Shown one piece after another: positions 4,671 through 27,013 of a stretch of DNA of 64,000 nt. The stretch lies in assembly GCA_017616775.1 (NCBI GenBank), contig JAFZXM010000052.1, forward strand, positions 77,282 through 141,281. The letters run 5' to 3'. The DNA is from Bacteroidales bacterium (lineage in GTDB: Bacteria; Bacteroidota; Bacteroidia; Bacteroidales; WCHB1-69). The translations under genes and the position numbers were made by a program. The notes beneath the pieces are model-generated. The model made no database searches. It saw nothing but the letters and a program-made list of their open reading frames with translations, and had not been told where the DNA came from. Each line of letters starts with the position of its first letter. Position 1 is the stretch's first letter.

Positions 4671-7169
4671 ATGACAAAAGAGAACAAAATCAAAATTTTA
4701 AAACATGTATTGGCTGTAGTTGTGATGGCCGTCATTACTTTGGTGTATTTCAAACCCTTGCTCGACGGGGAAGATGTGCGTCAATCGGATATGATGTTCT
4801 TTGAGGGCATGAGTAAGGAATTGAAAGACTATCATGCCGCTACCGGAGATTATTCTTATTGGACCAATGCCATGTTTTCGGGCATGCCTGCAGCTTATTT
4901 GTATGCCAAACCCGATGCCAATGTATATTGGTGGATGGGGCTTCCCATTCAAAAAGGAACCCCTATGATGAGTTATGGCATTATATTGATGATGCTATTG
5001 TGTTTTTATATAGCCATGTGCCAATTGGATGTGCATCCTTTGGTGGCGTTTGCCGCCTCGCTGGCATATGCTTTTTGCTCATATAATCTTATTATCATAG
5101 AGGCGGGACACGTAACCAAAGCATATACTATCGCTTCCATACCGTTGGTGGTGACGGGTGTTATTTTGGCTTATCGCAACAAGTATTTGGCAGGAGGTTT
5201 GTTGTTTATGTTCGGCTTTGGTTTCAGCCTGGCACAATCGCATCCTCAAATCACCTATTACACGGGAATAGCCGTTGCCATATACGTGTTGGTGATATTG
5301 GTATATGCCATTGTCAATAAATCCCTGCTGAATTTTGCAAAAGCCAGCGCCGTGTTGGCGGTAGCGGCCTTATTGGCTGTATTGCCCAATGTGGGCAATC
5401 TTTACACTTCTTACGATTATTCCAAAGAAAGCATGCGGGGTCAGAGTGAATTGACAGCCAAGTCAACAGCATCGGGTCTGGATTATGATTATGCCTATGC
5501 GTGGAGCTATGGAAAAGGTGAAACCTTTACATTGTTAATTCCCAATGCAAGAGGCGGAGCGTCTCATCCTGACAGTTGGGAAGCCTATCAAAAAGATTTG
5601 CCCCAAACCATCTCCACCTTGCAATCCACCTCTTTAGGGCAAGATCCTAATCAACTTCTGCAACAATGTTCAGCCTATTGGGGTGCCCAGCCGTTCACTT
5701 CGGGGCCGGTGTATGCGGGAGCGGCGGTGTGCTTGTTGTTTGTGCTGAGTATGTTCTGGATAAAGGGAGAAATGAGAATATGGGCTATTGCGGTGTTTGT
5801 ATGCTCCATAGTGTTTGCATGGGGAAAATTTTGTCCCGCTGTCAATGATTTCATGTTCTATCATTTCCCGCTGTTTAATAAGTTCAGAACACCTTCCATG
5901 ATATTGGTGCTGACGACTTTTGTGATGGCGTTTTTCGGTTTTTACGGGCTTAAAGCCTTGTATAACAATGAGCTTAAACAGGATTATTTGAAAAAAAGTT
6001 TGTATATATCCATGGCAATAGTGGGTGGCTCGTGTTTTCTGATAGCCATAATGCCCAATTTGTTTTTCAATTTTTCCGTAGAACGGGATGCCGCCTTGCC
6101 CGAAGTGTTGCAATCATCCCTGATAGCAGACAGGAAAGCTTTGTGTGTGGCTGATGCGTGGAGGTCTTTGATATTTATAGCCCTGGCCTTTGCGGTATTA
6201 TATTTGGGCGTAAATAAAAAGTTGAAAACCAATTATGTTGTCATGGCTTTGGCCGCAATTGTTTTGATAGACTTATGGGGTGTGGATAAGCGGTATTTGA
6301 ATGACGGGGATTTTGAAAAACACGATCAGGCTGTATCGCAGCAATATGCAATGACACCATGTGACAATGCGATTTTGGCGGATAAAACACCGGGTTATAG
6401 AGTGCTTAATTTGGCGGCTAATCCTTTTACCGATACACATGCCTCTTATTTTCACCATTCCATAGGTGGGTATCACGGTGCCAAATTGAGAAGGTATCAG
6501 GAATTTGTGGATTCGGTGATGGTGAATGATTTACAAACGTTCAGCACTCAAATCGGCAATGTGCGTTCCGATTCCGAAGTAGTGGCGCTCACCTCATCAC
6601 TTAAGAGTTTGAATATGCTTAATGCAAAATATTTTATATTCCAATATCAGGCGCAGCCGTTTGTGAATCCTTCTGTGTATGGTCCGGCTTGGATAGTGAA
6701 TGATGTGCAATGGGTGAATGATGCCAATGAAGAGTTGGCTATGACCAAAAATGCGGATACGCGTCATGTGGCCGTTGTCGATAAAAAATTCAAAGAAAAA
6801 TTGAGCGGTTTTGCAGCAAATGACGACAATCAATCGGAGATTATGCTTTTGAAGCAGACGTCCAATACCTGCGAATACAAAGTAAATGCGCAAAGTGATG
6901 TTTTGGCTGTGTTTTCCGAAATATATTATCCTAAATATTGGAAAGTGAGCATAGACGGAAAAGAAACAGACGGACTGATACGTGCGGATTATATTTTAAG
7001 GGCGCTTAAAATTCCTCAAGGCGAACATACGGTTAAATTTGAATTTTATCCTTCCTCATGGTTTGCGGCACGCAATTTATCCATGATAAGTTCTGTTATC
7101 ATCATATTGCTGGTGTTGGGAACAGCAGTATATAAATATGGGTATGAGCCTCGTAAAAAAACATGCTGA
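4671..7169 (+). CDS. YfhO-family polytopic membrane protein (putative glycosyl-transfer/lipid-linked glycan enzyme)
   Basis: 832 aa. Many N-terminal TM helices plus one C-terminal TM. The N-terminal region ..WTNAMFSGMPAAYLY.. is typical of Bacteroidota YfhO-like proteins. Confidence 0.65.
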   Translation: MTKENKIKILKHVLAVVVMAVITLVYFKPLLDGEDVRQSDMMFFEGMSKELKDYHAATGDYSYWTNAMFSGMPAAYLYAKPDANVYWWMGLPIQKGTPMMSYGIILMMLLCFYIAMCQLDVHPLVAFAASLAYAFCSYNLIIIEAGHVTKAYTIASIPLVVTGVILAYRNKYLAGGLLFMFGFGFSLAQSHPQITYYTGIAVAIYVLVILVYAIVNKSLLNFAKASAVLAVAALLAVLPNVGNLYTSYDYSKESMRGQSELTAKSTASGLDYDYAYAWSYGKGETFTLLIPNARGGASHPDSWEAYQKDLPQTISTLQSTSLGQDPNQLLQQCSAYWGAQPFTSGPVYAGAAVCLLFVLSMFWIKGEMRIWAIAVFVCSIVFAWGKFCPAVNDFMFYHFPLFNKFRTPSMILVLTTFVMAFFGFYGLKALYNNELKQDYLKKSLYISMAIVGGSCFLIAIMPNLFFNFSVERDAALPEVLQSSLIADRKALCVADAWRSLIFIALAFAVLYLGVNKKLKTNYVVMALAAIVLIDLWGVDKRYLNDGDFEKHDQAVSQQYAMTPCDNAILADKTPGYRVLNLAANPFTDTHASYFHHSIGGYHGAKLRRYQEFVDSVMVNDLQTFSTQIGNVRSDSEVVALTSSLKSLNMLNAKYFIFQYQAQPFVNPSVYGPAWIVNDVQWVNDANEELAMTKNADTRHVAVVDKKFKEKLSGFAANDDNQSEIMLLKQTSNTCEYKVNAQSDVLAVFSEIYYPKYWKVSIDGKETDGLIRADYILRALKIPQGEHTVKFEFYPSSWFAARNLSMISSVIIILLVLGTAVYKYGYEPRKKTC

Positions 7170-7188
7170 AGCCTAAAAGCACGGATAT

Positions 7189-7222
7189 AAAAAAAACGCA
7201 CATATGCTTATGTGCGTTTTTT
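7189..7222. terminator. bidirectional terminator between convergent YfhO-like gene and rpmF
   Basis: A-run, ACGCACAT-atgctt-ATGTGCGT hairpin, T-run. Confidence 0.75.
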
Positions 7223-7242
7223 ATTTTTTAGTATTAACAAAA

Positions 7243-7434
7243 TTATGCTTCAACTTCATTTTTGGGTGCAATAGCTTGTTCGCCACGATAGTAACCGCAT
7301 TCAGGACATACGTGGTGATACATAACTGCGGTGCCGCAGTTGGAGCATTCCATTAATTGAGGAGCCACCGCTTTATCGTGGGTTCTTCTTTTGTCTCTTC
7401 TTGTTGCAGAATGTCTTCTTTTCGGATTTGGCAT
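7243..7434 (-). CDS. rpmF: 50S ribosomal protein L32
   Basis: The MPNPKRRHSATRRDKRRTHDK start is classic L32. CxxC...CxxC zinc ribbon present. Confidence 0.92.
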   Translation of the reverse strand: MPNPKRRHSATRRDKRRTHDKAVAPQLMECSNCGTAVMYHHVCPECGYYRGEQAIAPKNEVEA

Positions 7435-7472
7435 GACTAATATTATTTTAAAAATTATATACTCTTATTATT

Positions 7473-8012
7473 TTATTCCTCTAATTTTATTTTTTTCAAA
7501 GCATCCCAACGGCTGTCGTAATGAGGCTCTTGAGATTGCTCCTGATTTTTTTGTATCAATTCAAGCATCAGCGGATTGCACCTGTCGTTGTCATTCTTGT
7601 TAGAATGTTCTTTACGAATGGGAATCGCTACCATCAGATATTCGTAGATGTATTGTTCCACATTGAATTTATAATCTTTTTCTGTAATGAATACAATATC
7701 TTCATCATCACTTGTGCGGGGAGTGTCCACTTTTTTCAGTATCAGTTTGTCATGTTTTGATACAGAAATGTGCATTTCTTCCAAACATATGTCACATGTG
7801 GAAACCAAATAACCCTGCATGTCAAAATCCATATTGACGATATTGTCTTCACAAGATACCATCAGTTTTATCAATACGTTTGCATCTGTAATATCTTCAT
7901 TTACATGCTTTTCAAAGAACGTTTTGTCCACCTGCATATCAAAATCGTGTTTCCCGTTTTTCAAGGAAGCGATATTGATATCAAATTGTTTAAAATACGT
8001 TTTATCTTCCAT
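7473..8012 (-). CDS. YceD/DUF177-family protein (23S rRNA accumulation protein)
   Basis: Sits directly upstream of rpmF, the classic yceD-rpmF pair. Acidic protein with a CDICLEE motif. Start moved to ATG 8012 because a -7 box (8036-8043) lies inside the longer track ORF. Confidence 0.7.
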   Translation of the reverse strand: MEDKTYFKQFDINIASLKNGKHDFDMQVDKTFFEKHVNEDITDANVLIKLMVSCEDNIVNMDFDMQGYLVSTCDICLEEMHISVSKHDKLILKKVDTPRTSDDEDIVFITEKDYKFNVEQYIYEYLMVAIPIRKEHSNKNDNDRCNPLMLELIQKNQEQSQEPHYDSRWDALKKIKLEE

Positions 8013-8035
8013 GAAACATATTCCAATAAGACTTG

Positions 8036-8043
8036 CAAAGGTA
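8036..8043 (-). promoter_or_regulatory. -7 promoter box (TACCTTTG on minus strand) for yceD-rpmF
   Basis: The forward-strand sequence CAAAGGTA is the reverse complement of TACCTTTG. It lies 24 nt upstream of ATG 8012. Confidence 0.5.
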
Positions 8044-8420
8044 GCATTTTTTATTGAATTAAAAGGCAAACAACATGGATTTTTTTTTCAATGGCTTGTA
8101 AAAAGATAAGGCACAATTGTATTTGTTCCGGGCCGCTGGCAAGTTAAAATATAGTTGATCAATAAAAAAAAGTCGGCAACATGTTTTTATACAATAAATG
8201 AAATTGCAATGCGATACTCAAAAAACAGATGAAAATGTTATTACCAAAAATTTGTAAAAGAATAGCAAGGAAGAAAACATCCACTGCTATTTTATTGGTA
8301 TTGTTCCATGTAATAGTTGTTTCGCAAGAGCAATACATGAATAGTTTTGATAATCATGTTTGCAATCATAAATTGAGAGTACCCCAATATATTTTAATTC
8401 TAAATTCAAAAAACGAAGGT

Positions 8421-12924
<4,504 letters not shown>

Positions 12925-15683: not shown

Positions 15684-16145
15684 ATGGCAAAAACAAAAGA
15701 GATCATTGAAGAACCTTTGGAAAAGCCGCCGACAAGCTGATTTTGGAGAATTTTTGGAGAAGATAAAATTGTAAAGGTTGTGAAAAATAACAAAGATAAT
15801 ACTTCTTATATCAACTTTGACGAATATATCCGTCAGGGAGAGCCGGAAAAGAAGAAACGTGCCGATGCATGGCGCGTAGCCATCGGTTTGCAAGCCGTGG
15901 ACGGGCTGAAAACATCGGCGTATCTTCAAGAATTGGCTCGTCGAAATATTGAGGGCGAGATTACGATTGACGAGGTTAAGACGCTTATTGACCAATACTA
16001 TGCCGAGAAAAAGGTGGGGAGGGTACTACCTGATTTAAGCATCCCAACAAATGCCAAACCAGCACCCGACAAGCCCCGCCATCCCGGACAAAAATATCTG
16101 CTCACCGCCAAAGGAATCAGGTTGTACAACAATATGTTGACATAG
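15684..16145 (+). pseudogene. decayed Fic-family gene retaining only the VbhA-antitoxin-like N-terminal region
   Basis: ATG 15684 opens an 18-codon frame stopped by in-frame TGA 15738-15740. The same frame continues into the track ORF (GTG 15780). YINFDEYIRQGEP..AWRVAIGLQAVDGLKTSAYLQELARRNIEGEITIDEV matches the N-terminal module of Bacteroides Fic proteins. No HxFx(D/E)GNGRxxR core follows. Confidence 0.5.
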
Positions 16146-16248: not shown

Positions 16249-17256
16249 TTACTCTTTTTTCTTTTCAAGCATTCCACGTATCTGTTTGTCAAAATCGGAG
16301 TCAATACGCTGTGTTTTGTTGAAAATATCGTACTCGCTCTCTGCCTTGGCTTTGGCATCGGCTGCGGAGATACGCCCTTTGTCGGGCAAAATTCTGTAAT
16401 CGTTGAATGCGAGAAACTTCTCCACACTGGCAGCAAACTGCTCCATAGTGAAGGCATTGTGCAACTCTATCTGATTTTCAATATAGTCAAAATAAGAAGT
16501 AACAGCACGCTCCAGCCGCTTAATTTCATTTTCCGGCAGATAGTTCTTAGCTATTGACACATCACTTTTCAAAATTCGGCCATCAGGAGCATTTTTCCAA
16601 GTGGTCAGTCCCATATTGGCCTTTTGGTGGTCGGCATTGGTATAAATGATTTCTGCAGCTGTTTGCCCTGTGATAGCATAATGGAAACGGTTCTGTATCA
16701 TTGCGTAAAAATCGTGGGTAGAGGGGGCGTTCTTGTCGTAGTCAATGCTGCATTCCGCATAGATATCGGTAATCTGCTGCCAGATACGTCGCTCACTGGC
16801 ACGGATGGAACGCACACGCTCCAACAATTCGCGAAAATAATCTTTTCCAAAAACCGCAGTACCCTGTTTCAAACGTTCGTCATTGAGTACGAATCCCTTC
16901 CGTATATACTCGTTGAGAATCTTTGTAGCCCATATACGGAATTTGGTTGCCCGTGCCGATGACACGCGGTAGCCCACGGCAATGACCGCATCAAGAGAAT
17001 AGAACGTTGTCAAATACTTTTTGCCGTCTGAAGCAGTTGCCGAGATTTTCTCGGTAACTGAATTTTTATCTAATTCATTAGCTGCAAATATGTTTTTAAG
17101 ATGTAGTCCCACGTTGTCTGTTGAACAGCCAAACAATTGTGCCATCGCTTTCTGCGTTGCCCAAATGGTCTCATCTTTGATAACCACCTGCACCTTGCCC
17201 TCCTCCTCGGGCAATTGGTATAATATGAATTGTATTTCGTTCATTGTGCTATCCAC
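16249..17256 (-). CDS. RhuM-family protein
   Basis: 335 aa. IWATQKAMAQLF...DGKKYLTTFYSLDAVIAVGYRVSSARATKFRIWATKILNEYIRKGFVLNDERLK is the RhuM signature region as I know it. Confidence 0.75.
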   Translation of the reverse strand: MDSTMNEIQFILYQLPEEEGKVQVVIKDETIWATQKAMAQLFGCSTDNVGLHLKNIFAANELDKNSVTEKISATASDGKKYLTTFYSLDAVIAVGYRVSSARATKFRIWATKILNEYIRKGFVLNDERLKQGTAVFGKDYFRELLERVRSIRASERRIWQQITDIYAECSIDYDKNAPSTHDFYAMIQNRFHYAITGQTAAEIIYTNADHQKANMGLTTWKNAPDGRILKSDVSIAKNYLPENEIKRLERAVTSYFDYIENQIELHNAFTMEQFAASVEKFLAFNDYRILPDKGRISAADAKAKAESEYDIFNKTQRIDSDFDKQIRGMLEKKKE

Positions 17257-17407: not shown

Positions 17408-18337
17408 TCAATCCAAGGATTCAGGTTCGTCATTTTTGTCTGTGTTTTCACGTATTGTTGGATTCGATGCTAAAATATAATTACTATTGCATATATAACC
17501 TTCTTGCTCATAGCCTCGATGAAAACGGTGAATAGTTGAAATGAGATTTAAGACTCTTTCGTCTTCTACAGTCATATTCCTATAATGAGATAGTTGTGAG
17601 TTGTATAAATCAATGTTCCCATTGGAAATACGTTCTTCGTAATCTTTTGGTATAAATAACGAAGCTCGCTCTCCTAAATGTCGATAAAACTCATTCTGGT
17701 AGATGGCGACTCCTGCCAAATCCAAATCACCGAAATGAACATATCTGTTGGGAATAGACAAGAGCCATTTTAATAGATCTTTGCTCTGGTTTTGCGGATA
17801 GCGGGTTACGAACAGGACCTTTCTATATTCATTAAAAAGATATTTTTGACGAGCAATATGGCGAAAGTTCTCAGCATTTTCTACGCCAATAACCACGACA
17901 TCTTCGGATATGTGGAAATGCTGATAGTCAGCAATGAACATGAAAGTGCCATCTGGAGGAAGTATTGTCAGTTGTTTCCCGTCTAAAACAGCATAAATGG
18001 GCTGATAACTGTTCACTAAGAATCCTGCAAACGAGCGGTGTAACAGAAACTTACTGTCACCTGTAACTTCCACCTGTGAGGCTCTGTCAACACTCCCATC
18101 AGTAAGTAGTTCATGTGTTTGTTCCAAATTGCGGATGTCGTATTGGCCAGCCAGATAGTTGCGGAAGGTTGAGGTGTCTGACACACGAAGGCTCTTATGA
18201 CTGCCGCGTGTAATACCTAACAAGATGCCGTCTGTCTGCATCTGCTCAAACCAATCTCCCTTCAGGCTGCTGGCAGGCAAAGTCTCGCCATTAGCTAAAC
18301 GAATCAGTTTTTCTATGAGTGCAGCAGTTTTTTTCAT
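17408..18337 (-). CDS. jetD: JetD/MksG-like Toprim-domain protein (putative nuclease subunit of the SMC operon)
   Basis: 309 aa. Toprim-like acidic motifs VIGVENAENF and HFGDLDLAGVAIY. ATGA start/stop overlap with the upstream ATPase gene. Confidence 0.6.
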   Translation of the reverse strand: MKKTAALIEKLIRLANGETLPASSLKGDWFEQMQTDGILLGITRGSHKSLRVSDTSTFRNYLAGQYDIRNLEQTHELLTDGSVDRASQVEVTGDSKFLLHRSFAGFLVNSYQPIYAVLDGKQLTILPPDGTFMFIADYQHFHISEDVVVIGVENAENFRHIARQKYLFNEYRKVLFVTRYPQNQSKDLLKWLLSIPNRYVHFGDLDLAGVAIYQNEFYRHLGERASLFIPKDYEERISNGNIDLYNSQLSHYRNMTVEDERVLNLISTIHRFHRGYEQEGYICNSNYILASNPTIRENTDKNDEPESLD

Positions 18338-21300
18338 CTTATAGTCAGTAAAGTTTTAACAATGGTATTACTTTTCTCGTCTTTGCTGAGAGAGTAGGTG
18401 TATTTGTATGCCAACGCATTATAGGTCGTCGGAGATGAGTTGATTAGGAAAATGTTACGTTTGCTCGCGAAATCAAGAATTCCTTCCACGTTCTTGGGAT
18501 GCAATTTACCAATCTCATCCATCATACAATGGAGTTTGAAGTCGCCGAACTTACGGGATATTTTGGATTTGAATACATTGATGAGCATAATATTCACCAT
18601 TGCCTTCACCAAAATATCAGTGCCGTCAGAGCCTACATTTGAGAGTTTCTCTACCCAACTGGTGTCGTTATCGTTCTCCTTCACCTTAAACTCCAGTTTG
18701 AAGGTGTCTGCCAAAGTGATATTCTCTCGCTTTTGCTCAGCATCCATCATATCTATGAGTGTCATCAACAAATTTACGGCTTGTTCATTAGTGCGATTCA
18801 AGTCTTTTTCTGTCGTGAAGAGGTTCAGGTTTCCGATATCATATCCGTGTTCATCATCAAAGTGCTTGATGTTTAACAGTTGCTGCATCAGCCTGTCGTT
18901 GCTCTCCACGGCACGTAGTTCTATCTCCTTGATAACTCCGACAAAATTGTTCTCTCTGAAGTCACGATTAATGTCAAGAATTGTCTTTTCGATGTCAGAT
19001 TTATGCTGGCTTAGATCACTAACATCCTTTGCAATCCGTTTAATGATGGTAGCATACTGACGACTGGTACGAACACGATACTGCTCAATCTTGTTGTTGC
19101 TTATAAATTCATTAAGTTCTGCGGCAAAATCCGTATAGTCCGCATCAGTGTTGAATTCTGTACGGAAATGGAAGGTGTTTTGTGCTGAGAAATTGCCCTT
19201 GAATCGGACGACTGCCTGTTTGAAATCCTCAAATTTTTGTTGCTGGGTGCTAATTCGGTCACGAAGTTCTTCCAGAATGTCAGCAAGCGGTTTAACAGTT
19301 TCTATGTCCTTTGCTGAAAGCAACTCTGGCGGACAAGTGGGGTTGCCCATAAAAGCATGAACCTTGCTGATGGCATCATTCAGCTTCTTTTGTTCGTCTT
19401 GCAGTTTGCGTAATTCAGTTGAAAGCACACCGATTTTCTCGTCATATTGCTGCTTTCGTTTTTGGAATTTATCTTGTAGTTCATCTATCTTTTGGCGAAT
19501 GAGTTTACGTTCATCCTTTTTCTTCTGTTCCAGATTGAAATACTCGCGTGTGTCGTTCTGCCATGAAATAAAGTTGGGACGATGTTCTTCTATGTATTTC
19601 AGTTCATCAGTTACTTTTTGTAGTTGTTGGCGGATGATAGCCAATTGATTGACATCTACGCCAAGTCCTTTTAGTTCAGCATCCATCTGTGCCTGCAATT
19701 CACCTTTTTGTTGTGCAACATCTTGTTCTTTACTTTTCAGCTCAGCATTAATATCCGATTTTTGTTGGTCACATGTATCCTTTAACTCTTTCTTCTGTTT
19801 TTCAAAAGATTTACGATTGTTCTCCAACTCTTTGTCTCGCTGGTCTGTAAAGAGTTTTCCCTGATTGCTAATGGCCTCGATTTCTTTATCTGTCTCTCCA
19901 ATCCTCTTTTGAAGCTTCTCGAGTTCCTCATTACGCCATTTCTTCAAACTTTCCATAGAATCAAATTGCTTCTTCTGAAGCAGTTCTATTCGACGAGGTA
20001 TTTGATTGTATTCTGCATCGACAGTCATCTTCTCCATGCGGAGTTGTTTTAGGCTCGCACCCGGCTTCCGCTCCAACCCTGCAATGTCGGCTTCCAACTG
20101 CTGTTTCCTGAGAGTATTTTTTTTGTTCAGTTCGTCAATTTTCCGTTCCATCGAAACTTTCTGAGCTTTCAGTTCATCAGGTGTCTTGATGATCTTCTCA
20201 ATGTTGTCGGTCTCAATCTTAACACCATAAATGCTGTTGGATGGACCAACAAACTGAGGATTCAATGAAGTATTATAGAGTACGGCATCTTCATCAAGCA
20301 CACGTCCAATATTCTCTTCCCAGCCATTCACATTCTCGCCCAACCATTCTATGAGAGAGCCCTTTTGGCGACTGAGCATATCTGTAACCTTTTCTATTTC
20401 GGTATTGATTTGCTTTATTTCATTCTCAATGGCTGCGACATCTTTCTCACATGCCACTTCCAATTCTTTACGCTGCATACCAACTTCATTGACAATATGG
20501 TCAATCTCCTGCTGCTTGCTAGAAGACTCCTGAAATAGCTTCAACTTTTTGTCATTCAACTCCTTCAACTTCCGCTCTTGTTCATCCATCTCATCTTGGT
20601 AAGGATTTGACTGCTTCACCCTCTGCTGCTGAAGTTTAAGGTCACTCTTTGTCTGACGAGCATCGTCTAATTGGGTCTGATTTTCTTTTAGCTTCTGATC
20701 ATATTGTCCACGAACAACTTCTGTTAGTTCTGTCATTTCTGTTTGCAGACGATTTTGCGCCTGCAAAAGTTGGCTATCCAATTCGTTGATACGTTGTTGG
20801 CATTGTAACTTGTATGCCTGTAGTTGATTCTCAACATCCTGTATTAATGTGTCATATTTAGACTTGACACTCTGGTTCTTGTCCGTCAGCGTATCTTCCT
20901 GATGCAACAGAGTTTGCTGTTGTATTTTAAGTTCACCTTCTCTACCAATACGCTCTGCAATTCTTTCTATTCCGATTTCTGCATAGTGCTGACGCTTATC
21001 TTTGACCTTCTTCAAGAAGTCATCTATGATAGCTTCATTACCCTTCAATCCGTCACGCTCTTTTGTAAACTTGTCGTTTTCTTCTTCCAATAGTCTATTC
21101 TGTCGGGATAAATCCTGACTACAGTCTGTTTCTTGCTCTGCTAACTGTGGCAAAAGGTTTGTATCTCGTTCCAATGCGTAATTCAACTGACCACAAAGTT
21201 CTGAGATTAGTTTACGGACATACTCATAATCAGTGTATTTCTCAATAACAGCTTCCGCATCAGTCTTTACTTTTACTTTGCCGTTCTTCTCTACCTTGTA

Positions 21301-21993
21301 CCATTTCCAAATATCTTCATACTGCTGACGGAAATTCTTTACCTCTTCACGGTAACGATTCAGGTCAATGTCGTCGCTCGCGAAGTCCATTGAGTCAATG
21401 ATAGTGTCTTTGATTACGCGAGACTCCAAGCTTTGGTTCAGGAAGATATTCTGAATAGTCAATGGCACCTGGCGGTATTTTGTACTCTCCATCAATGAGA
21501 AACGGCGAAATTCTTTTGCCACCTGTTGACTGTTGCCATAGATAATATCACGAAACTCCTCATAGCCACGAATGATATTGCTTTTGAACACGCGAGTGCC
21601 TATCTGCTCGCTAATGCGTCCCCATTCATATCGTACACTTCTGTCTTCCTCGACAAAGAACTTTTTGTCGTACGCACAGTCAACAATACGGAAGGCTGTA
21701 CGCCCATGTGAGAGGAAGGTCATCACAAAAAACTTGCCAGTCTCACGGCATACTTCGTAAATGATGTAAGAGTTCTGGTGAGGCAGATAGAACTCATCGT
21801 AACTCTTCTGTCCAGCTTGAGTCTTAATGCCAAGTTTGTTCTTATCGACATTATAGAAGAATAAAATTGAACGGAGCAGAGTTGATTTACCAACGCCCTG
21901 CGTTCCAATAAAATGCACATTGCCATCAAGTTTTATCTCTGCGTATGGAACGTGTGCACTATTGATGAATATGATTTTATTGAGGTATCTCAT
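18334..21993 (-). CDS. jetC: SMC/JetC-like ATPase with long coiled coil
   Basis: 1219 aa. Walker A GTQGVGKST (aa 30-38), about 700 aa of E/K/Q/L-rich coiled-coil-like sequence, C-terminal Walker B-like LHCMMDE. Confidence 0.7.
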   Translation of the reverse strand: MRYLNKIIFINSAHVPYAEIKLDGNVHFIGTQGVGKSTLLRSILFFYNVDKNKLGIKTQAGQKSYDEFYLPHQNSYIIYEVCRETGKFFVMTFLSHGRTAFRIVDCAYDKKFFVEEDRSVRYEWGRISEQIGTRVFKSNIIRGYEEFRDIIYGNSQQVAKEFRRFSLMESTKYRQVPLTIQNIFLNQSLESRVIKDTIIDSMDFASDDIDLNRYREEVKNFRQQYEDIWKWYKVEKNGKVKVKTDAEAVIEKYTDYEYVRKLISELCGQLNYALERDTNLLPQLAEQETDCSQDLSRQNRLLEEENDKFTKERDGLKGNEAIIDDFLKKVKDKRQHYAEIGIERIAERIGREGELKIQQQTLLHQEDTLTDKNQSVKSKYDTLIQDVENQLQAYKLQCQQRINELDSQLLQAQNRLQTEMTELTEVVRGQYDQKLKENQTQLDDARQTKSDLKLQQQRVKQSNPYQDEMDEQERKLKELNDKKLKLFQESSSKQQEIDHIVNEVGMQRKELEVACEKDVAAIENEIKQINTEIEKVTDMLSRQKGSLIEWLGENVNGWEENIGRVLDEDAVLYNTSLNPQFVGPSNSIYGVKIETDNIEKIIKTPDELKAQKVSMERKIDELNKKNTLRKQQLEADIAGLERKPGASLKQLRMEKMTVDAEYNQIPRRIELLQKKQFDSMESLKKWRNEELEKLQKRIGETDKEIEAISNQGKLFTDQRDKELENNRKSFEKQKKELKDTCDQQKSDINAELKSKEQDVAQQKGELQAQMDAELKGLGVDVNQLAIIRQQLQKVTDELKYIEEHRPNFISWQNDTREYFNLEQKKKDERKLIRQKIDELQDKFQKRKQQYDEKIGVLSTELRKLQDEQKKLNDAISKVHAFMGNPTCPPELLSAKDIETVKPLADILEELRDRISTQQQKFEDFKQAVVRFKGNFSAQNTFHFRTEFNTDADYTDFAAELNEFISNNKIEQYRVRTSRQYATIIKRIAKDVSDLSQHKSDIEKTILDINRDFRENNFVGVIKEIELRAVESNDRLMQQLLNIKHFDDEHGYDIGNLNLFTTEKDLNRTNEQAVNLLMTLIDMMDAEQKRENITLADTFKLEFKVKENDNDTSWVEKLSNVGSDGTDILVKAMVNIMLINVFKSKISRKFGDFKLHCMMDEIGKLHPKNVEGILDFASKRNIFLINSSPTTYNALAYKYTYSLSKDEKSNTIVKTLLTIR

Positions 21994-22528
21994 CTTTCAC
22001 GTCTTCGTCTATGTTAATACAAAGTATAATCTGCTCGATGTAATGAAAAGCATTGGTAACCTGATACGTGCTGTCAACCTCATTCACCATCTCCGCAAAC
22101 CCCATATTTTCTAACGCATCTGCCAACGCCTCCAGCTTTTGGCGATTCGACGGTTTGTCTGGAAACATCTGGGACAGTTTCTCTTTTAAACCTGGTATTG
22201 TGGAAAGCTTCACTTCCATCTGAACCAAACTAAACTGAGTTCCTGCATCAAAAGCCGTGTCGTATGTCTTCAGGAAGTCAAGATAGTCAATCCAAGAAAA
22301 CAACGATTGCAACTTGTTTTCTGTTGTCACCTTCGCTTCCTTGCGGCTGAAGTAGTAGAATCCGTCGCCACTACATAGTTGGAAGTCTATCTGACTGAAA
22401 TAGTCTTCATACTCCTGTTGGTTCTCTTCTATATCATTATAAATGGCACGCGTATCCGCATCAATGCTGTTACTCGATATAAATTGTCCCCGACTGAGGC
22501 GTTGGAATATTTCGCTTGTATATTTCAT
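21977..22528 (-). CDS. small acidic subunit in the JetB/MukE (KITE) position
   Basis: 183 aa, acidic. Overlaps neighbours by 17 nt downstream and by ATGA upstream. Assignment rests on size and position only. Confidence 0.4.
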   Translation of the reverse strand: MKYTSEIFQRLSRGQFISSNSIDADTRAIYNDIEENQQEYEDYFSQIDFQLCSGDGFYYFSRKEAKVTTENKLQSLFSWIDYLDFLKTYDTAFDAGTQFSLVQMEVKLSTIPGLKEKLSQMFPDKPSNRQKLEALADALENMGFAEMVNEVDSTYQVTNAFHYIEQIILCINIDEDVKDEIPQ

Positions 22529-23718
22529 AGTGGGTATATAATAGGATATTCTATGTTGTTCATTGTCTTCATCTCGTCTGTATAGTGCAATTGGTCTGGA
22601 TATTGTGATGCCATTTGTAGAAAGAGCACCAGACGCAATTCTTTGTCAAGCAAGTCAGTAAACGAATAGTTCCATACGTAGTAGAACAAATCGCGACTTT
22701 GAGCCAAGAAACCATTCAGCAATTCTTGATGGTTGAAAGCTCGAGCCGTTTCTGTTTGTTCCTCTAGGTAGTTGGAATCTATCCTCTCGGCCAGTCTCGA
22801 CTTGATGTTGGCTTTCTTTGACAGACGCCGTCTGATGTTGTCAAGAATATCAAGCGCAGTGTCCTCATTACGAAGGAAATCAAGAGAGACACGTGTGATG
22901 TACTTTGGCTGACGTTCCATCCAGACATCGTTTGTTTGTGTAACGATTTCCTTAATATTGGTTGTTTGCTCAATCATGTACTGATCGTGCAAATATTTCA
23001 ACTGGCGAACACGTTTCACTAAACGACTTTGGTATTCAATACGGTTTAAATAATCAATAATTTGGGCTGATACAGCAATAAGGCCGTGTGCCGAATCTTT
23101 CAAACTGTCACGTACTTCGCTTACGGTTTGTTTAAGACTATAATTCGCTGCACTCGCAAAGAAGATATGTTGTTCGTCTATAACACGTTCAGTCTGCCTT
23201 ATTAGTTCTGCTATCAGTTGCCCTTTTTCATCAAAATCTTTAAGACGAAGTTCCTTAATCTTGAAATTAGGTTCCTGCTTATAGGTGTCATCAACATTCC
23301 TTTTCAAATCCATCACATTTCTGCGAGTGGTATTCTCAATGCTCTTGAATGTGTGACGTATTTCTCTGAGAAATCCTTCTCTGCGAATATTGTTCTCAGC
23401 CGCCAGATAAGAATCAATACCAAGTTTCAGTTTATCAATATATGTCTTGACAGAAGAAATATTGATATCTTCGTTTACGGCCAGAACTTCCTCAAAGAAT
23501 CGTTGATATGCATCGTCCAGTTCCAATGCTTCCCCAGATTGCACAATCACTCCGAAAGTTATCAAATGCTTTAGTTTGTTCTCGTCTCCCTCCAATGTTT
23601 CGAGAGCATCATCATACTTTACGGCAACTGTCTTGCGTTTCATAAACATATCGTTCAGCAGTTTTGTGCCCTGCTGAAGTCCACGAATCAGTTCTTTTAT
23701 TGAATGATATGTCGCCAT
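22525..23718 (-). CDS. helical subunit in the JetA/MukF (kleisin) position
   Basis: 397 aa and first gene of the coupled operon. Assignment rests on size, position and composition only. Confidence 0.4.
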   Translation of the reverse strand: MATYHSIKELIRGLQQGTKLLNDMFMKRKTVAVKYDDALETLEGDENKLKHLITFGVIVQSGEALELDDAYQRFFEEVLAVNEDINISSVKTYIDKLKLGIDSYLAAENNIRREGFLREIRHTFKSIENTTRRNVMDLKRNVDDTYKQEPNFKIKELRLKDFDEKGQLIAELIRQTERVIDEQHIFFASAANYSLKQTVSEVRDSLKDSAHGLIAVSAQIIDYLNRIEYQSRLVKRVRQLKYLHDQYMIEQTTNIKEIVTQTNDVWMERQPKYITRVSLDFLRNEDTALDILDNIRRRLSKKANIKSRLAERIDSNYLEEQTETARAFNHQELLNGFLAQSRDLFYYVWNYSFTDLLDKELRLVLFLQMASQYPDQLHYTDEMKTMNNIEYPIIYPL

Positions 23719-23883
23719 GTTTAATTTATTTAGTACTTATACGTCGCCGTGGTGTTGCTTAAAATTCCTGAAAGTGCGGAAATCGGAAGTTTGCTATTCT
23801 AAGAAAGTGATATGTCTTTTCTTTATTATTCCATTTAAATTCAATAATTTTTATTCTATTAGAAAAATCATGGTATTTATAAT

Positions 23884-24147
23884 TTGCAAAAATAATAAAA
23901 TTATCCTACATTTCTATCGTTTTTGCAAATTATTTTTTTAGATGCAGAATGAATATGTGTATAAAAAGTTATCGGTGCATTTGGCTTGTTCTGATTATTC
24001 AGATGTTTATGAGATTTTTGCTTATTTTGTTTGTCTTGGTTCATAAGATGTTTTATTTTGCATAAGATACTAAAACCCATTGAAATATCAATGGATTAAG
24101 GCAATATTTTTTTAACAAAAAAGATGTGAAAGAATAAAAAATGCAGG
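23884..24147 (-). repeat. island intergenic repeat, copy A (upstream of the SMC operon)
   Basis: About 95% identical by eye to copy B over about 225 bp. Contains inverted repeat TTGCAAAAA/TTTTTGCAA (23884-23928), -7 box TATTTTTG (23887-23894, minus), a degenerate second box (TATCTTATG), hairpin CCATTGA-aata-TCAATGG (24077-24094), and ends at ATGCAGG (24141-24147). Confidence 0.85.
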
Positions 24148-24185
24148 AAGAGGATATAAAGTTTGTATTTACTTAATTCCAAGTG

Positions 24186-25265
24186 CTATTCTTGGTTTAG
24201 TTTTGTCTCAATCTCTTCAATGGTAGGAATAGTGCCTTCCACTTTTGCGGGATAGAATTTTTCCAACTCATACTCAGATATGCCAATAGGCTGGCTGCTT
24301 GACTCCAAAGCATATTGAGCCTGTGTGTTGTCTTTGCTTCGGCAAATGAGCAGTCCTATGGTGGGGTTGTCCTTGCCTTCTTCACGCAGTTGATGGTTGA
24401 CAGCGACCACATATGAACCAATCTGTCCTATGTCAGCAGGAGTAAACTTGCCGATTTTTACTTCAATGACGACATAACAGCGGAGACGCAAATTATAGAA
24501 TAGCAGGTCGATGAAGTTTTCGGTATGCCCAATCTGTAGTCGGTACTCTCTGCCTACGTATGCAAATCCGGTACCCAATTCAACCAAGAAGTCGGTGATG
24601 TTTTTGAGCAGTGCCATTTTCAACTCTGCCTCGTTATGCTGTTTGGCAACACCGGCAAATGCAAAGTTGTAGGGGTCTTTGGTCAGTTCTTGCGCCAAGT
24701 CGCTTGAGGTGTTGGGTATGGTGGTGGCAAAGTTGGTAATAGACTTCCCGGAACGTTCATACATTCCTATATCAATCCAGTTAAGCAAAAGTGCGCGGCT
24801 CCAGCCGTTTTCTATGGTTTGACCTACATAGAACAACGCCTTGTTCACATCGCCTTTCACCTTGTCGAGGATAAGTTTATGATGGCCCCAAGGTACCATG
24901 AATATAGGCGACTGGTTTTGCTTCGGCAGGTCGGGCAATAATTTGCCCCCAGCTTGGGGGCAAAATTCAACCGCCTCGGAATAAAGGAGGTAGAACCGAC
25001 GGCAATATCTTAAATTGGTTGACGAGAGGCCTTCTGCAGTGGGCATCGCTTTTTTCAAATCTTTACTGAGTTGGTTAATGACACTTTCTCCCCAGCGGTC
25101 TTCCACATGCATTTCTACGATGTCACGCCCAAGTAGGAAGTTATAGATCAATTGCTCGGTGTTGACTTTAACTGCGGCTCTGACTTGGCACAGCCGATAA
25201 CGGTCAATCAAGGTTTCCACCCACTGCTGGTATTCTTTATCCATGATGGTTATTGCCTTACTCAT
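24186..25265 (-). CDS. DUF1016/YhcG-family PD-(D/E)XK nuclease
   Basis: 359 aa. N-terminal YQQWVETLIDRYRLCQVRAAVKVN region and C-terminal FIDLLFYNLRLRCYVVIEVKIGKF (D...E-x-K core), typical of YhcG-like proteins. Confidence 0.75.
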   Translation of the reverse strand: MSKAITIMDKEYQQWVETLIDRYRLCQVRAAVKVNTEQLIYNFLLGRDIVEMHVEDRWGESVINQLSKDLKKAMPTAEGLSSTNLRYCRRFYLLYSEAVEFCPQAGGKLLPDLPKQNQSPIFMVPWGHHKLILDKVKGDVNKALFYVGQTIENGWSRALLLNWIDIGMYERSGKSITNFATTIPNTSSDLAQELTKDPYNFAFAGVAKQHNEAELKMALLKNITDFLVELGTGFAYVGREYRLQIGHTENFIDLLFYNLRLRCYVVIEVKIGKFTPADIGQIGSYVVAVNHQLREEGKDNPTIGLLICRSKDNTQAQYALESSSQPIGISEYELEKFYPAKVEGTIPTIEEIETKLNQE

Positions 25266-25726: not shown

Positions 25727-27013
25727 TTATTCCTCTTGCTTTTTAATATATCCACGAGTTACCTTGTTGATGGCAATCTCTGTCAAATAACCTTGTTGCA
25801 CCAAATCGGAGAGGTCTTTCCTTGCCGTCATGGAAGAAACAGAGAACTGCTCCTGTACATCTTTTACGGTTAAAATAGTGTCTGGTTCTTCTGTCAATCT
25901 TTGCAATACCAATGCCTGCCGCTGGTTGATGTTTCCTGTCATCATAAAGACGGCGGCAGCTTTTTTCTCCCGTTGCTTCCGCTGGATATAGTCGCGGAGT
26001 TGCTGGAAAGAAATTTCCAACGCTCTCAAATTGTATGCCACAAAATATCCCATGTCGTTGCCGTCATTTTCTGTATAGCGGAACGATTTCTCATAACTGA
26101 TTTTTGATTTCGCAATTACCCTTGATATGGACATGTATTCCATGAGTTTGTAGTTCTCTTTCAGCATATACCAATAGAAAAGAGCACGGGCCGTCCGACC
26201 ATTGCCATCCGCAAAGGGGTGCATATAAGCCACCATAAAATGAATGATGATGCCTTTGATAATGGGATGAATAAAGGTACGTGGGTTATCATTATTGAAA
26301 AAGTCACATAAAGTTGTTACAAATTCCGGAATCTCCTCAAAGGCAGGCGGAGTATGAACAATATCCCCTTCAATCATATTGGCTACAACCACGTTGTTGT
26401 TTGTCCTGAAACAACCGGCGTCTTCAGGATTGTCCAATGTCTTTTCTGTCATCAGTCTGTGAATATACAGCAACCCTTCCTCCGTCAAGGGGACATTCTT
26501 ATGTTCTACAATATATTGGATAGTCGTATAGTTGTTTACAATCATCTGCTGTGCCTTGTTTTGAGGTGTTTTTTTTTTCCTCAGCATTTCTTTAGCAACA
26601 ATGCGGGTGGTGGAAGCACCCTCCATTTTGCTGGAATAGATAGCCTCTTCCATCAAGGAACTTGACAGATAATATTTTTTTTCGGAACTTTGTGAATTGT
26701 TACCGGCTTCCCAGAAACTTCCGAACTTCATATCAAAGTCATGGCAAAGACGTTGCATTTTGTTGGTGACAAATAGTTTAATTCCATATTTGTTCCAAAC
26801 ATTCAGTCTGTCTTGCTGACGAGAGGCTTTAACGTATGTCCACAATATCTTAGGACTGACGCCTTTGGGAAGATGATTCTTGTATTTAACCTTATCCCAA
26901 TATTCATAATCATCGTTTATTTGATTAATAATCGGATAAATGCGTTCATCTACACTACCCATGATGTACTTCAAATAAGCGTCATCATTTATTTTTGGCG
27001 GATATTCTATCAT
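25727..27013 (-). CDS. Fic-family protein, class II (N-terminal inhibitory helix) with C-terminal winged-helix domain
   Basis: 428 aa. Fic core HPFADGNGRTARAL, upstream inhibitory-type motif SSKMEG ((S/T)xxxE(G/N)), C-terminal ..QALVLQRLTEEPDTILTVKDVQEQFSVSSMTARKDLSDLVQQGYL (wHTH-like). Confidence 0.85.
   Translation of the reverse strand: MIEYPPKINDDAYLKYIMGSVDERIYPIINQINDDYEYWDKVKYKNHLPKGVSPKILWTYVKASRQQDRLNVWNKYGIKLFVTNKMQRLCHDFDMKFGSFWEAGNNSQSSEKKYYLSSSLMEEAIYSSKMEGASTTRIVAKEMLRKKKTPQNKAQQMIVNNYTTIQYIVEHKNVPLTEEGLLYIHRLMTEKTLDNPEDAGCFRTNNNVVVANMIEGDIVHTPPAFEEIPEFVTTLCDFFNNDNPRTFIHPIIKGIIIHFMVAYMHPFADGNGRTARALFYWYMLKENYKLMEYMSISRVIAKSKISYEKSFRYTENDGNDMGYFVAYNLRALEISFQQLRDYIQRKQREKKAAAVFMMTGNINQRQALVLQRLTEEPDTILTVKDVQEQFSVSSMTARKDLSDLVQQGYLTEIAINKVTRGYIKKQEE

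Follow-up and report, generated by a model that had tools for sequence, protein, structure and literature searches.

Wadjet is the best-understood structural maintenance of chromosomes (SMC) loop-extruding motor that is used for immunity. Its type I members, with which the locus described here was compared, are JetABCD of Pseudomonas aeruginosa PA14 and Escherichia coli GF4-3, MksBEFG of Corynebacterium glutamicum, and EptABCD, and almost all work on Wadjet has been done on systems of this type (PMC10586767). The N-terminus of the KITE subunit JetB carries an IFDR motif that was reported to contact the nuclease JetD and that cross-links to it (PMC10586767). In C. glutamicum MksG, E236 and D279 bind metal and are needed for cleavage, and the residues proposed as alternative nucleophiles in JetD have their counterparts in E349 and E351 (PMC10123090). 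MukBEF, encoded in the order kleisin-KITE-ATPase (mukFEB), has no nuclease partner, and Lamassu uses an SMC-like ATPase, LmuB, for defence. Here, we describe a four-gene operon in a stretch of 64,000 nucleotides (below, the window) from a Bacteroidales bacterium (assembly GCA_017616775.1, contig JAFZXM010000052.1, positions 77,282 to 141,281). A first-pass annotation, made from the letters of this stretch, had proposed a divergent Wadjet (JetABCD/MksBEFG)-like operon of an SMC ATPase and a Toprim protein, and this core claim held: ORF2 falls into the MksE family, ORF3 falls into DUF3584, and the only defence models matched by the ORF4 family are those of JetD. We consider it fairly probable that the operon encodes a four-subunit SMC DNA-restriction complex of the Wadjet/MksBEFG kind that belongs to a separate, very divergent lineage.

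The operon lies on the minus strand (window positions 17408-23718; Table 1), and all four open reading frames (ORFs) are intact and translationally coupled. ORF1 and ORF2 share an ATGA stop/start overlap (CTATGAAAT), as do ORF3 and ORF4 (AAGATGAAAA), while ORF2 and ORF3 overlap by 17 nt, with the start of ORF3 inside ORF2. The ORF list and the junction sequences agree exactly with the four coupled same-strand ORFs and the lengths given in the first-pass annotation, and also with its statement that the gene order, kleisin-KITE-ATPase-nuclease, is that of jetABCD. The GC content of the operon (0.39-0.42) is inside the range of the remaining window, and the four proteins are carried as “hypothetical protein” in the annotation of a matching Bacteroidales metagenome-assembled genome (MAG). 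The presumed promoter region upstream of ORF1 is the sole sizeable non-coding gap on the minus strand ahead of the operon; scans for sigma-70 promoters and intrinsic terminators gave results at chance level and are unsuited to Bacteroidota promoters.

Protein families were assigned with Pfam, defence systems with the 5,027 models of PADLOC-DB v2.0.0, and MksBEF with the NCBIfam equivalogs. ORF3 is a full-length member of Pfam DUF3584 (PF12128; 2.1e-67 over aa 18-1195; 228 bits against a cut-off of 31) and covers positions 12-1180 of the 1191 in the profile, in agreement with the SMC-type architecture that had been read from its sequence. The Walker A and Walker B motifs picked out by eye are both present and conserved across 57 homologous ATPases; eight of the nine Walker A positions are at least 95% conserved and the remaining one, T31, at least 70%. 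The last residue of Walker B, E1160, is the presumed catalytic glutamate. The octapeptide NVGSDGTD, at least 95% conserved in the same 57 homologues, is a candidate equivalent of the ABC signature motif (C-motif), as judged by its position about 30 aa before Walker B. In these homologues, the head regions (aa 1-240 and 920-1219) are conserved and the middle (240-920) is variable, apart from a conserved island at aa 541-600 that may be the hinge between two coiled-coil arms of about 300 aa each. Two further, moderately conserved islands (aa 362-380, ~20854-20910; aa 765-790, ~19624-19701) occupy matching places in the middle of the two arms, each about 175 residues away from the putative hinge; from their position alone, they could be an elbow or joint of the kind found in MukB and JetC. 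The N-terminus of the ATPase had been called unusual, which was not borne out, since its hydrophobic strand, I-N and G-x-x-G-x-G-K-S-T parallel the start of E. coli MukB. Among the PADLOC models, JetC1 matched ORF3 over aa 1-64 only (1.7e-6), and LmuB matched weakly and in the coiled-coil region only (9.3e-4 and 0.39), where matches often arise from composition.

ORF2 matches Pfam MksE (PF21980) over its full length (1.9e-40; profile positions 1-162 of 163), and its acidic nature, noted before, is reflected in an isoelectric point (pI) of 4.3. Weaker matches were obtained with NCBIfam MksE (1.8e-5; 24.4 bits against a cut-off of 400), PADLOC JetB (1e-3; aa 26-76) and, below threshold, Pfam DUF4194 (2.4e-3). 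An N-terminal motif, [IV][FY][QED]R-L at aa 7-11 (IFQRL in the window), is kept in most homologues. Its resemblance to the IFDR motif of JetB weakly suggests that the nuclease may dock at a similar site. The arginine is missing in both three-gene, nuclease-free examples (IYDYL and VFDVL; see below); it was rejected as a marker of nuclease-carrying systems because it is also missing in some four-gene loci (L065, L068 and L070).

ORF1 had no match in Pfam, PADLOC or NCBIfam, and the kleisin (MukF/JetA) models were likewise unmatched by all 77 diverse relatives of ORF1, which reach down to 22% identity. Its family comprises 416 clusters at 50% identity, all of about 400 aa. The AlphaFold2 (AF2) model of ORF1, with a predicted local distance difference test (pLDDT) score of 76, has an N-terminal winged-helix-like domain followed by long helices that end near residue 246, a linker modelled with low confidence (248-325) and, at the C-terminus, a domain made of helices and a hairpin; as modelled, this layout is the general plan of MukF-type kleisins. 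When the model was compared with the Protein Data Bank (PDB) by Foldseek, the top chain was 8q72_E from the E. coli JetABCD core (E-value 4.7e-3), and 10 of the top 16 matches were JetABCD-core or MukF chains, nine of them MukF (9gm7, 9gm9, 3rpu, 3euh, 1t98 and 7nz2). These kleisin matches had E-values of 4.7e-3 to 9e-2 and probabilities of up to 0.98. Chain E of 8q72 is probably JetA, as its 466 residues would fit that protein. Taken with the gene position and the strict co-occurrence with MksE and the ATPase, the weak fold match makes ORF1 a likely kleisin. Of the proposed kleisin and KITE assignments, that of ORF2 thus stands on Pfam MksE, and that of ORF1 is likely, with best fold matches to MukF and probably JetA.

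Family matches and catalytic residues together point to ORF4 as a JetD/MksG-like nuclease with a predicted Toprim fold. Its own match to Pfam DUF7281 (PF23947) is borderline (27.2 bits; cut-off 27), and the family was matched by all 29 relatives (best 2.1e-11) and is precomputed on most homologues. JetD_C (formerly DUF2220) was weakly matched by 16 of the 29 relatives and DUF2399 weakly by ORF4. Among all PADLOC models, the ORF4 family matched those of JetD only (types 1, 2 and 3; best 6.1e-7), with JetD1 matched by 29 of 29 members; in the window protein, this match covers aa 137-214 and model positions 259-336 (7.8e-7). The Toprim-like motifs that had been quoted as evidence for JetD/MksG kinship proved invariant in the 29 homologues. 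Around the Toprim glutamate, G151, E153-N154 and E156-R159 are invariant, and within HFGDxDLAG residue 205 is either L or F. Further downstream, Q278, E279 and G280 are invariant, and at least 90% of the relatives have D at position 277, where the window protein has E. E153 is the counterpart of MksG E236; the glutamate and the first aspartate are 51 aa apart in ORF4 (E153-D204) and 43 in MksG (E236-D279), and the acidic pair follows that aspartate by 73 and 75 aa in ORF4 compared to 70 and 72 aa in MksG. Residue 277 and E279 may therefore be equivalent to E349 and E351 of MksG, as judged only by this spacing.

The nuclease differs from JetD in its N-terminal part. DUF3322, the N-terminal domain of JetD, was not matched in Pfam by ORF4 or its 29 relatives; ORF4 is about 100 aa shorter than the type I/II JetD models, and the part ahead of its Toprim region is only about 140 residues long. 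The AF2 model, built from a 34-sequence alignment, had a mean pLDDT of 60, with blocks of about 51-76 in the Toprim region, and was confident only for aa 1-80, a winged-helix-like domain for which Foldseek returned weak matches to ArsR/SmtB-type winged helix-turn-helix proteins (E-values 0.2-0.5). One subclade of ORF4 relatives (74-78% identical) carries a C-terminal Nudix hydrolase fusion, giving proteins of about 408-451 aa (L005 at 6189-7433, P0129, P0130, P0138-P0141, P0147, P0149, P0152, P0153 and P0168), and in L005 the fused nuclease is followed by a RecQ-family helicase gene (7453-9522). Where this subclade has the Nudix fusion, the window protein ends in a tail of about 26 aa that is unique to it.

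The operon was then placed among the described systems. PADLOC returned no full-length set for Wadjet types I-III: JetA was matched neither by ORF1 nor by its 77 relatives, and the JetB, JetC1 and JetD1 matches were weak and partial, on which grounds ordinary membership of types I-III was rejected. Lamassu membership was rejected as well, because LmuB matched only in the coiled coil and neither LmuA nor LmuC was matched. Among the operon proteins, NCBIfam MksB and MksF found no match and MksE scored far below its cut-off; Pfam MukF, MukE and MukB matched none of the four. No sequence match to the solved JetABCD, MksG or MukBEF chains was obtained when the four proteins and the ORF4 family profile were searched against the PDB. 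Comparison with E. coli MukF, MukE and MukB by hhalign gave probabilities below 1%, which, given that single-sequence targets are insensitive, is not evidence against homology. Of the Pfam families that had been expected, DUF3375 and DUF3322 were not matched, and DUF4194 and JetD_C were reached below threshold only. The profile searches, which put ORF3 in an SMC-type family and did not return four ordinary Wadjet proteins, support the earlier suggestion that the operon is not a standard subtype. It fits a separate DUF3584/MksE/DUF7281 lineage better than it fits Wadjet types I-III.

With Wadjet type I, the operon shares the four subunit classes, their order, and the E...DxD site and downstream acidic pair of the nuclease; unlike type I, it has no significant DUF3375 or DUF3322, its nuclease is shorter and begins with a small winged-helix domain, its kleisin comes from a family without a Pfam match, and JetC models reach only the first 64 residues of ORF3. 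The likeness to MksBEF lies in ORF2, which is in Pfam MksE, and in ORF3, which is in DUF3584, the family of the Shewanella ATPase; unlike the window operon, MksBEF (P. aeruginosa, Shewanella and the three-gene form of Bacteroidota) has no nuclease gene and is found in housekeeping contexts. With MukBEF, it has in common the order of the first three genes, the MukF fold matches of ORF1 and the MukB-like pattern before Walker A of ORF3, whereas MukB is longer (1486 aa) than ORF3. Lamassu resembles it in the SMC-like ATPase but has no MukE-type KITE, MukF-type kleisin or Toprim JetD-like nuclease. The operon had also been described as compact, which is true of ORF1 (397 aa compared to 440 for MukF and the 466-residue chain in 8q72) and ORF4 (typically about 283 aa in the family compared to 382-430 positions in the PADLOC JetD type I/II models), but not of ORF2 (183 aa, near the 189-202 positions of the JetB models) or ORF3 (1219 aa, slightly longer than the 1146 positions of the JetC1 model).

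Conservation of the whole arrangement was assessed in 65 related loci from species-representative genomes, a survey that is biased to relatives of at least 35% identity and mostly Bacteroidales and says little on the spread outside that order. In about 55 of the 65 loci, all four genes are intact and in unchanged order, with near-identical sizes (396-403, 183-185, 1215-1230 and 274-303 aa) and tight coupling, which argues that the arrangement is not due to chance and is under selection. ORF1 homologues reach 427 aa where the first-ATG call adds an N-terminal extension, and most of the non-intact loci are cut by contig ends or carry disrupted genes. The loci form two clades with at least 44% and about 34-45% identity to the window proteins, respectively. 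The four-gene operon is frequent in Bacteroidales of the gut and rumen (Prevotella, Bacteroides, Phocaeicola and Muribaculaceae), where its distribution is patchy and its neighbours variable, and it is also seen on metagenome contigs.

A tblastn search of plasmids returned matches that were all of the DUF3584/DUF7281 type. The same four-gene operon was found on the Persicobacter plasmid pPP6, beside genes for a relaxase, a HigB toxin (of a toxin-antitoxin pair) and an AAA-PDDEXK protein, and on two unannotated Phocaeicola records. The confirmed four-gene carriers of undoubted plasmid status are all at least ~110 kb, an anecdotal observation that is compatible with an upper limit of ~100 kb for Wadjet (JetABCD) targets, as reported previously (bioRxiv 10.1101/2022.10.04.510915). 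Three-gene versions without the nuclease, 26-37% identical to ORF1-3, were also detected. The copy of Parabacteroides distasonis (32-37%; same order and sizes) is flanked by gcvT, NAD synthase and glutamine synthetase genes, on a record that is labelled a plasmid yet looks chromosomal. Both forms recur among distant members of the ORF1 family (four-gene at P0317, three-gene at P0300), and in a neighbour-joining tree of the ATPases the three- and four-gene versions are interleaved, which, without bootstrap support, is suggestive.

A further four-gene cluster occurs in Proteobacteria in the order ATPase-KITE-kleisin-nuclease (~1220-1265, ~212-224, ~407-432 and ~266-287 aa). Large or conjugative plasmids carry it in Polaromonas (JS666 plasmid 1), Pseudomonas (Leaf58 pBASL58), Vibrio, Acinetobacter and Marinobacter; in Enterobacter, it adjoins Tn7-like transposition genes on an IncC plasmid. 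The ATPase gene of the Enterobacter copy is interrupted by ISSod4, and in Vibrio campbellii (L077) the ATPase gene and the kleisin-like gene are both split. In the Polaromonas cluster, the ATPase is a core member of DUF3584 (1e-253) and the last gene encodes a DUF7281 protein (6.2e-14); the KITE proteins of the proteobacterial clusters stay below the Pfam MksE threshold. The genes are annotated as hypothetical, as ATP-binding or, once, as DUF2399, and PADLOC v2 did not recognise the clusters as Wadjet. When Bacteroidales and proteobacterial profiles were compared by hhalign, all four families were linked: ATPase 99.9%, KITE 97.1% (6.5e-11), nuclease 96.8% over the full length (2.6e-10) and kleisin 90.8% (1.2e-6, with a diverse ORF1 alignment), while cross-family controls were all below ~1%. 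The proteobacterial clusters thus share all four families with the window operon and differ by their ATPase-first order. The operon therefore belongs to a wider, unannotated DUF3584/MksE/DUF7281 lineage in which the genes come in two orders and the nuclease can be lost or gained.

Table 1 Features of the operon, its relatives and its neighbours. Positions are those of the window, or of the named locus (L) where one is given.
Feature	Position	Strand	Description
ORF1	22525..23718	-	397 aa; putative MukF/JetA-type kleisin; family without Pfam match
ORF2	21977..22528	-	183 aa, pI 4.3; MksE/MukE/JetB-type KITE subunit
ORF3	18334..21993	-	1219 aa; SMC-like (MksB/JetC-like) ABC ATPase, Pfam DUF3584
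ORF4	17408..18337	-	309 aa; compact JetD/MksG-like Toprim nuclease (predicted), Pfam DUF7281
Presumed promoter region	23719..24185	-	467-nt AT-rich intergenic stretch upstream of ORF1
Walker A/P-loop of ORF3	21880..21906	-	GTQGVGKST, aa 30-38
Candidate ABC signature (C-motif) equivalent of ORF3	18616..18639	-	NVGSDGTD, aa 1119-1126
Walker B of ORF3	18514..18534	-	LHCMMDE, aa 1154-1160; conserved in 57 homologues
ORF4 N-terminal winged-helix-like domain	18098..18337	-	aa 1-80; AF2 10-residue blocks with pLDDT 75-92
ORF4 Toprim-like catalytic region	17498..17917	-	aa 141-280; DUF7281, JetD_C, DUF2399 and JetD1 matches
E153 codon, Toprim glutamate	17879..17881	-	G-[IV]-E-N-x-E-N-F-R; invariant in 29 homologues
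D204-L-D206 codons, Toprim DxD metal-binding motif	17720..17728	-	HFGDxDLAG, aa 201-209; invariant in 29 homologues
Acidic-Q-E codons	17501..17509	-	aa 277-279; Y-[DE]-Q-E-G; E-Q-E in window protein
Three-gene version	L071:3200-8630		P. distasonis NZ_OY725754; ORF1-like, MksE, DUF3584 ATPase; without nuclease
Three-gene version	L072:3215-8678		Persicobacter pPP3; without nuclease
Three-gene version	L082:325-5742		ORF1-like, MksE, DUF3584 ATPase; without nuclease
Proteobacterial clusters	L073:5989-12371; L076:5806-12324; L077:4848-11290; L079:6953-13459		
Proteobacterial clusters, further	L080:6989-13408; L081:6935-13412; L075:6977-14522		
VbhA-like antitoxin-domain protein	15780-16145	+	2.2e-4; island neighbour
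RhuM-family protein	16249-17256	-	8.8e-104; island neighbour
YhcG/DUF1016 PDDEXK nuclease	24186-25265	-	Island neighbour
Fic-HTH protein	25727-27013	-	Island neighbour

In the restriction complex that we propose, the heads of two ORF3 copies would be bridged by the ORF1 kleisin, which would in turn carry ORF2 dimers. By analogy with characterised Wadjet, this ORF1-3 core would hydrolyse ATP and extrude DNA loops; on small closed-circular DNA, extrusion would run to completion and stall, and the stalled state would license ORF4 to cut. ORF4 is expected to work as a Toprim nuclease that is dimeric and metal-dependent and uses E153, D204 and D206, possibly with the acidic residue 277 and E279, and its N-terminal winged helix would be the DNA-binding domain. 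The outcome would be restriction of incoming plasmids, and possibly of further small circular elements, in Bacteroidales of the gut and rumen; the plasmid, Tn7-like and island locations are typical of defence systems. Several points weigh against this proposal. Neither Pfam, PADLOC, the scans of its relatives nor hhalign linked ORF1 to JetA or MukF by sequence, and its fold matches all have E-values above 1e-3 with TM-scores of 0.16-0.41. Prediction of the Toprim region of ORF4 failed and gave no Toprim match in Foldseek, which leaves the model unusable for or against that fold, and in a nuclease without DUF3322 the coupling to the SMC core could differ. The two Phocaeicola carriers labelled as plasmids are only 65 and 76 kb in size and their plasmid status is doubtful. 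Close three-gene, nuclease-free relatives lie among housekeeping genes, and Shewanella DUF3584 operons give cisplatin-sensitivity phenotypes (mutants of a three-gene operon; bioRxiv 10.1101/072470), so that the core may have chromosome-maintenance roles. In the literature searched, we found no description of the lineage and no mention of DUF7281.

An alternative explanation is that the operon encodes a chromosomal condensin of the MksBEF type, in which ORF4 would be an accessory Toprim enzyme with a task on the DNA of the host, such as decatenating it, resolving stalled loops or processing cross-link damage. The housekeeping context of the three-gene relative in P. distasonis, the occurrence of this form in Persicobacter as well, the interleaved (unbootstrapped) tree, the need for Shewanella DUF3584 operons in cisplatin resistance and two Bacteroidetes genomes without a known condensin (PMC10197239) would all fit such a role. 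We nevertheless consider it unlikely, as the four-gene version is patchy, has variable neighbours and an island-like context, and travels on a Persicobacter plasmid, while the ATPase-first version is on large proteobacterial plasmids and beside Tn7-like genes; moreover, its nuclease matches only the defence nuclease JetD among the PADLOC models, and the cluster is evidently dispensable in Enterobacter because the ATPase gene is disrupted by an insertion sequence.

A defence complex of the same build could also have another target or trigger, such as phage genomes, linear DNA or replication intermediates, or could work through abortive infection. DUF3322, which is missing here, is the arm that couples JetD to JetABC, the nuclease is shorter by about 100 aa, the ORF1 kleisin family is unrelated in sequence to JetA, and the Nudix fusion and RecQ helicase gene of one subclade hint at added activities. 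However, all four Wadjet subunit classes are present in canonical order, most ORF2 homologues keep the [IV][FY][QED]R motif that resembles IFDR of JetB (PMC10586767), and nothing in the data points to a phage-specific sensor, which makes a different target quite improbable. That the operon simply belongs to one of the Wadjet types I-III as an ordinary member, or is a standard MksBEF or MukBEF, and is divergent only to the eye, would be in line with its jetABCD order and subunit classes and with the DUF3584 domain that PADLOC describes for JetC type I, but it is very improbable in view of the weak, partial PADLOC Wadjet matches, the NCBIfam scores (MksE 24 against 400 bits; no MksB or MksF) and the failure to match Pfam Muk families or the sequence of any solved JetABCD, MksG or MukBEF chain.

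The operon bears on several wider questions. Three of its four families were already delineated by Pfam and its overall logic is that of Wadjet; new are a kleisin family unrecognisable by sequence, a truncated nuclease architecture, alternative gene orders and nuclease-free sister complexes, invisible to the defence models tested. Because the four subunit classes are kept with such a kleisin and with a nuclease that has no JetD N-terminal arm, the lineage is a natural test of the contacts needed to couple loop extrusion to DNA cleavage. Since PADLOC v2 models do not flag the operon, the share of SMC-based plasmid restriction in defence censuses of gut and rumen microbiomes is probably too low. 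The operon may also be one reason why Prevotella and other carrier genera are poorly transformable, and if so, its deletion could improve genetic tools. In two Bacteroidetes genomes, Lamy-Besnier et al. (2023) detected none of the known condensins, and from Bacteroides Hi-C data they proposed SMC complexes that are yet to be identified (PMC10197239), which makes the three-gene, nuclease-free cluster a candidate for the Bacteroides complex. With its mix of three- and four-gene forms, the lineage lends itself to studies of how condensins turn into defence systems. It is quite possible, and we put it forward tentatively, that Bacteroidota (kleisin-KITE-ATPase-nuclease, or F-E-B-G) and proteobacterial plasmids and Tn7-like cargo (B-E-F-G) share an unclassified fourth Wadjet-like lineage, missed by the defence models tested, that arose from, or repeatedly swaps its nuclease with, a three-gene sister, and that this sister could be the condensin “missing” from Bacteroidales. 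If true, a single protein lineage would show transitions from condensin to immunity, and a major unrecognised barrier to plasmid transfer would exist in Prevotella and Bacteroides.

The island that holds the operon spans ~11 kb of the window and is bordered by housekeeping genes, those for a metallo-beta-lactamase (MBL)-fold hydrolase and an aminotransferase at one end and that for DnaK at the other. The island neighbours were considered as parts of the system and rejected, because RhuM was found in only 5, YhcG in 2, the VbhA-like protein in 9 and Fic in 0 of the 65 loci; as the neighbours rarely co-occur elsewhere, the four genes are the functional unit. In five other loci (L007, L008, L009, L013 and L016), ORF4 is followed by a VbhA-like ORF at a distance of 6 nt, and RhuM follows ORF4 in L001 and L003. 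Two loci depart from the usual arrangement. In L031 (10745-16001; uncultured Bacteroidales chromosome OZ007033.1), about 3 kb lie between the ORF2 homologue and an ORF3 homologue that is truncated to 751 aa, suggesting an insertion that disrupted the ATPase gene. L084 (3730-8350), in which two TPR/LRR genes stand between an ORF1-family member (P0292; 28% identity) and MksE with no DUF3584 ATPase nearby, is a rearranged or degenerate locus. All loci were from Bacteroidota, and all named families but one from Bacteroidales, except for two that are assigned to Firmicutes, L020 (Candidatus Limiplasma MAG; 76% identity to ORF1) and L068 (Ruminococcus MAG; 35%), which likely reflect binning contamination or recent transfer.

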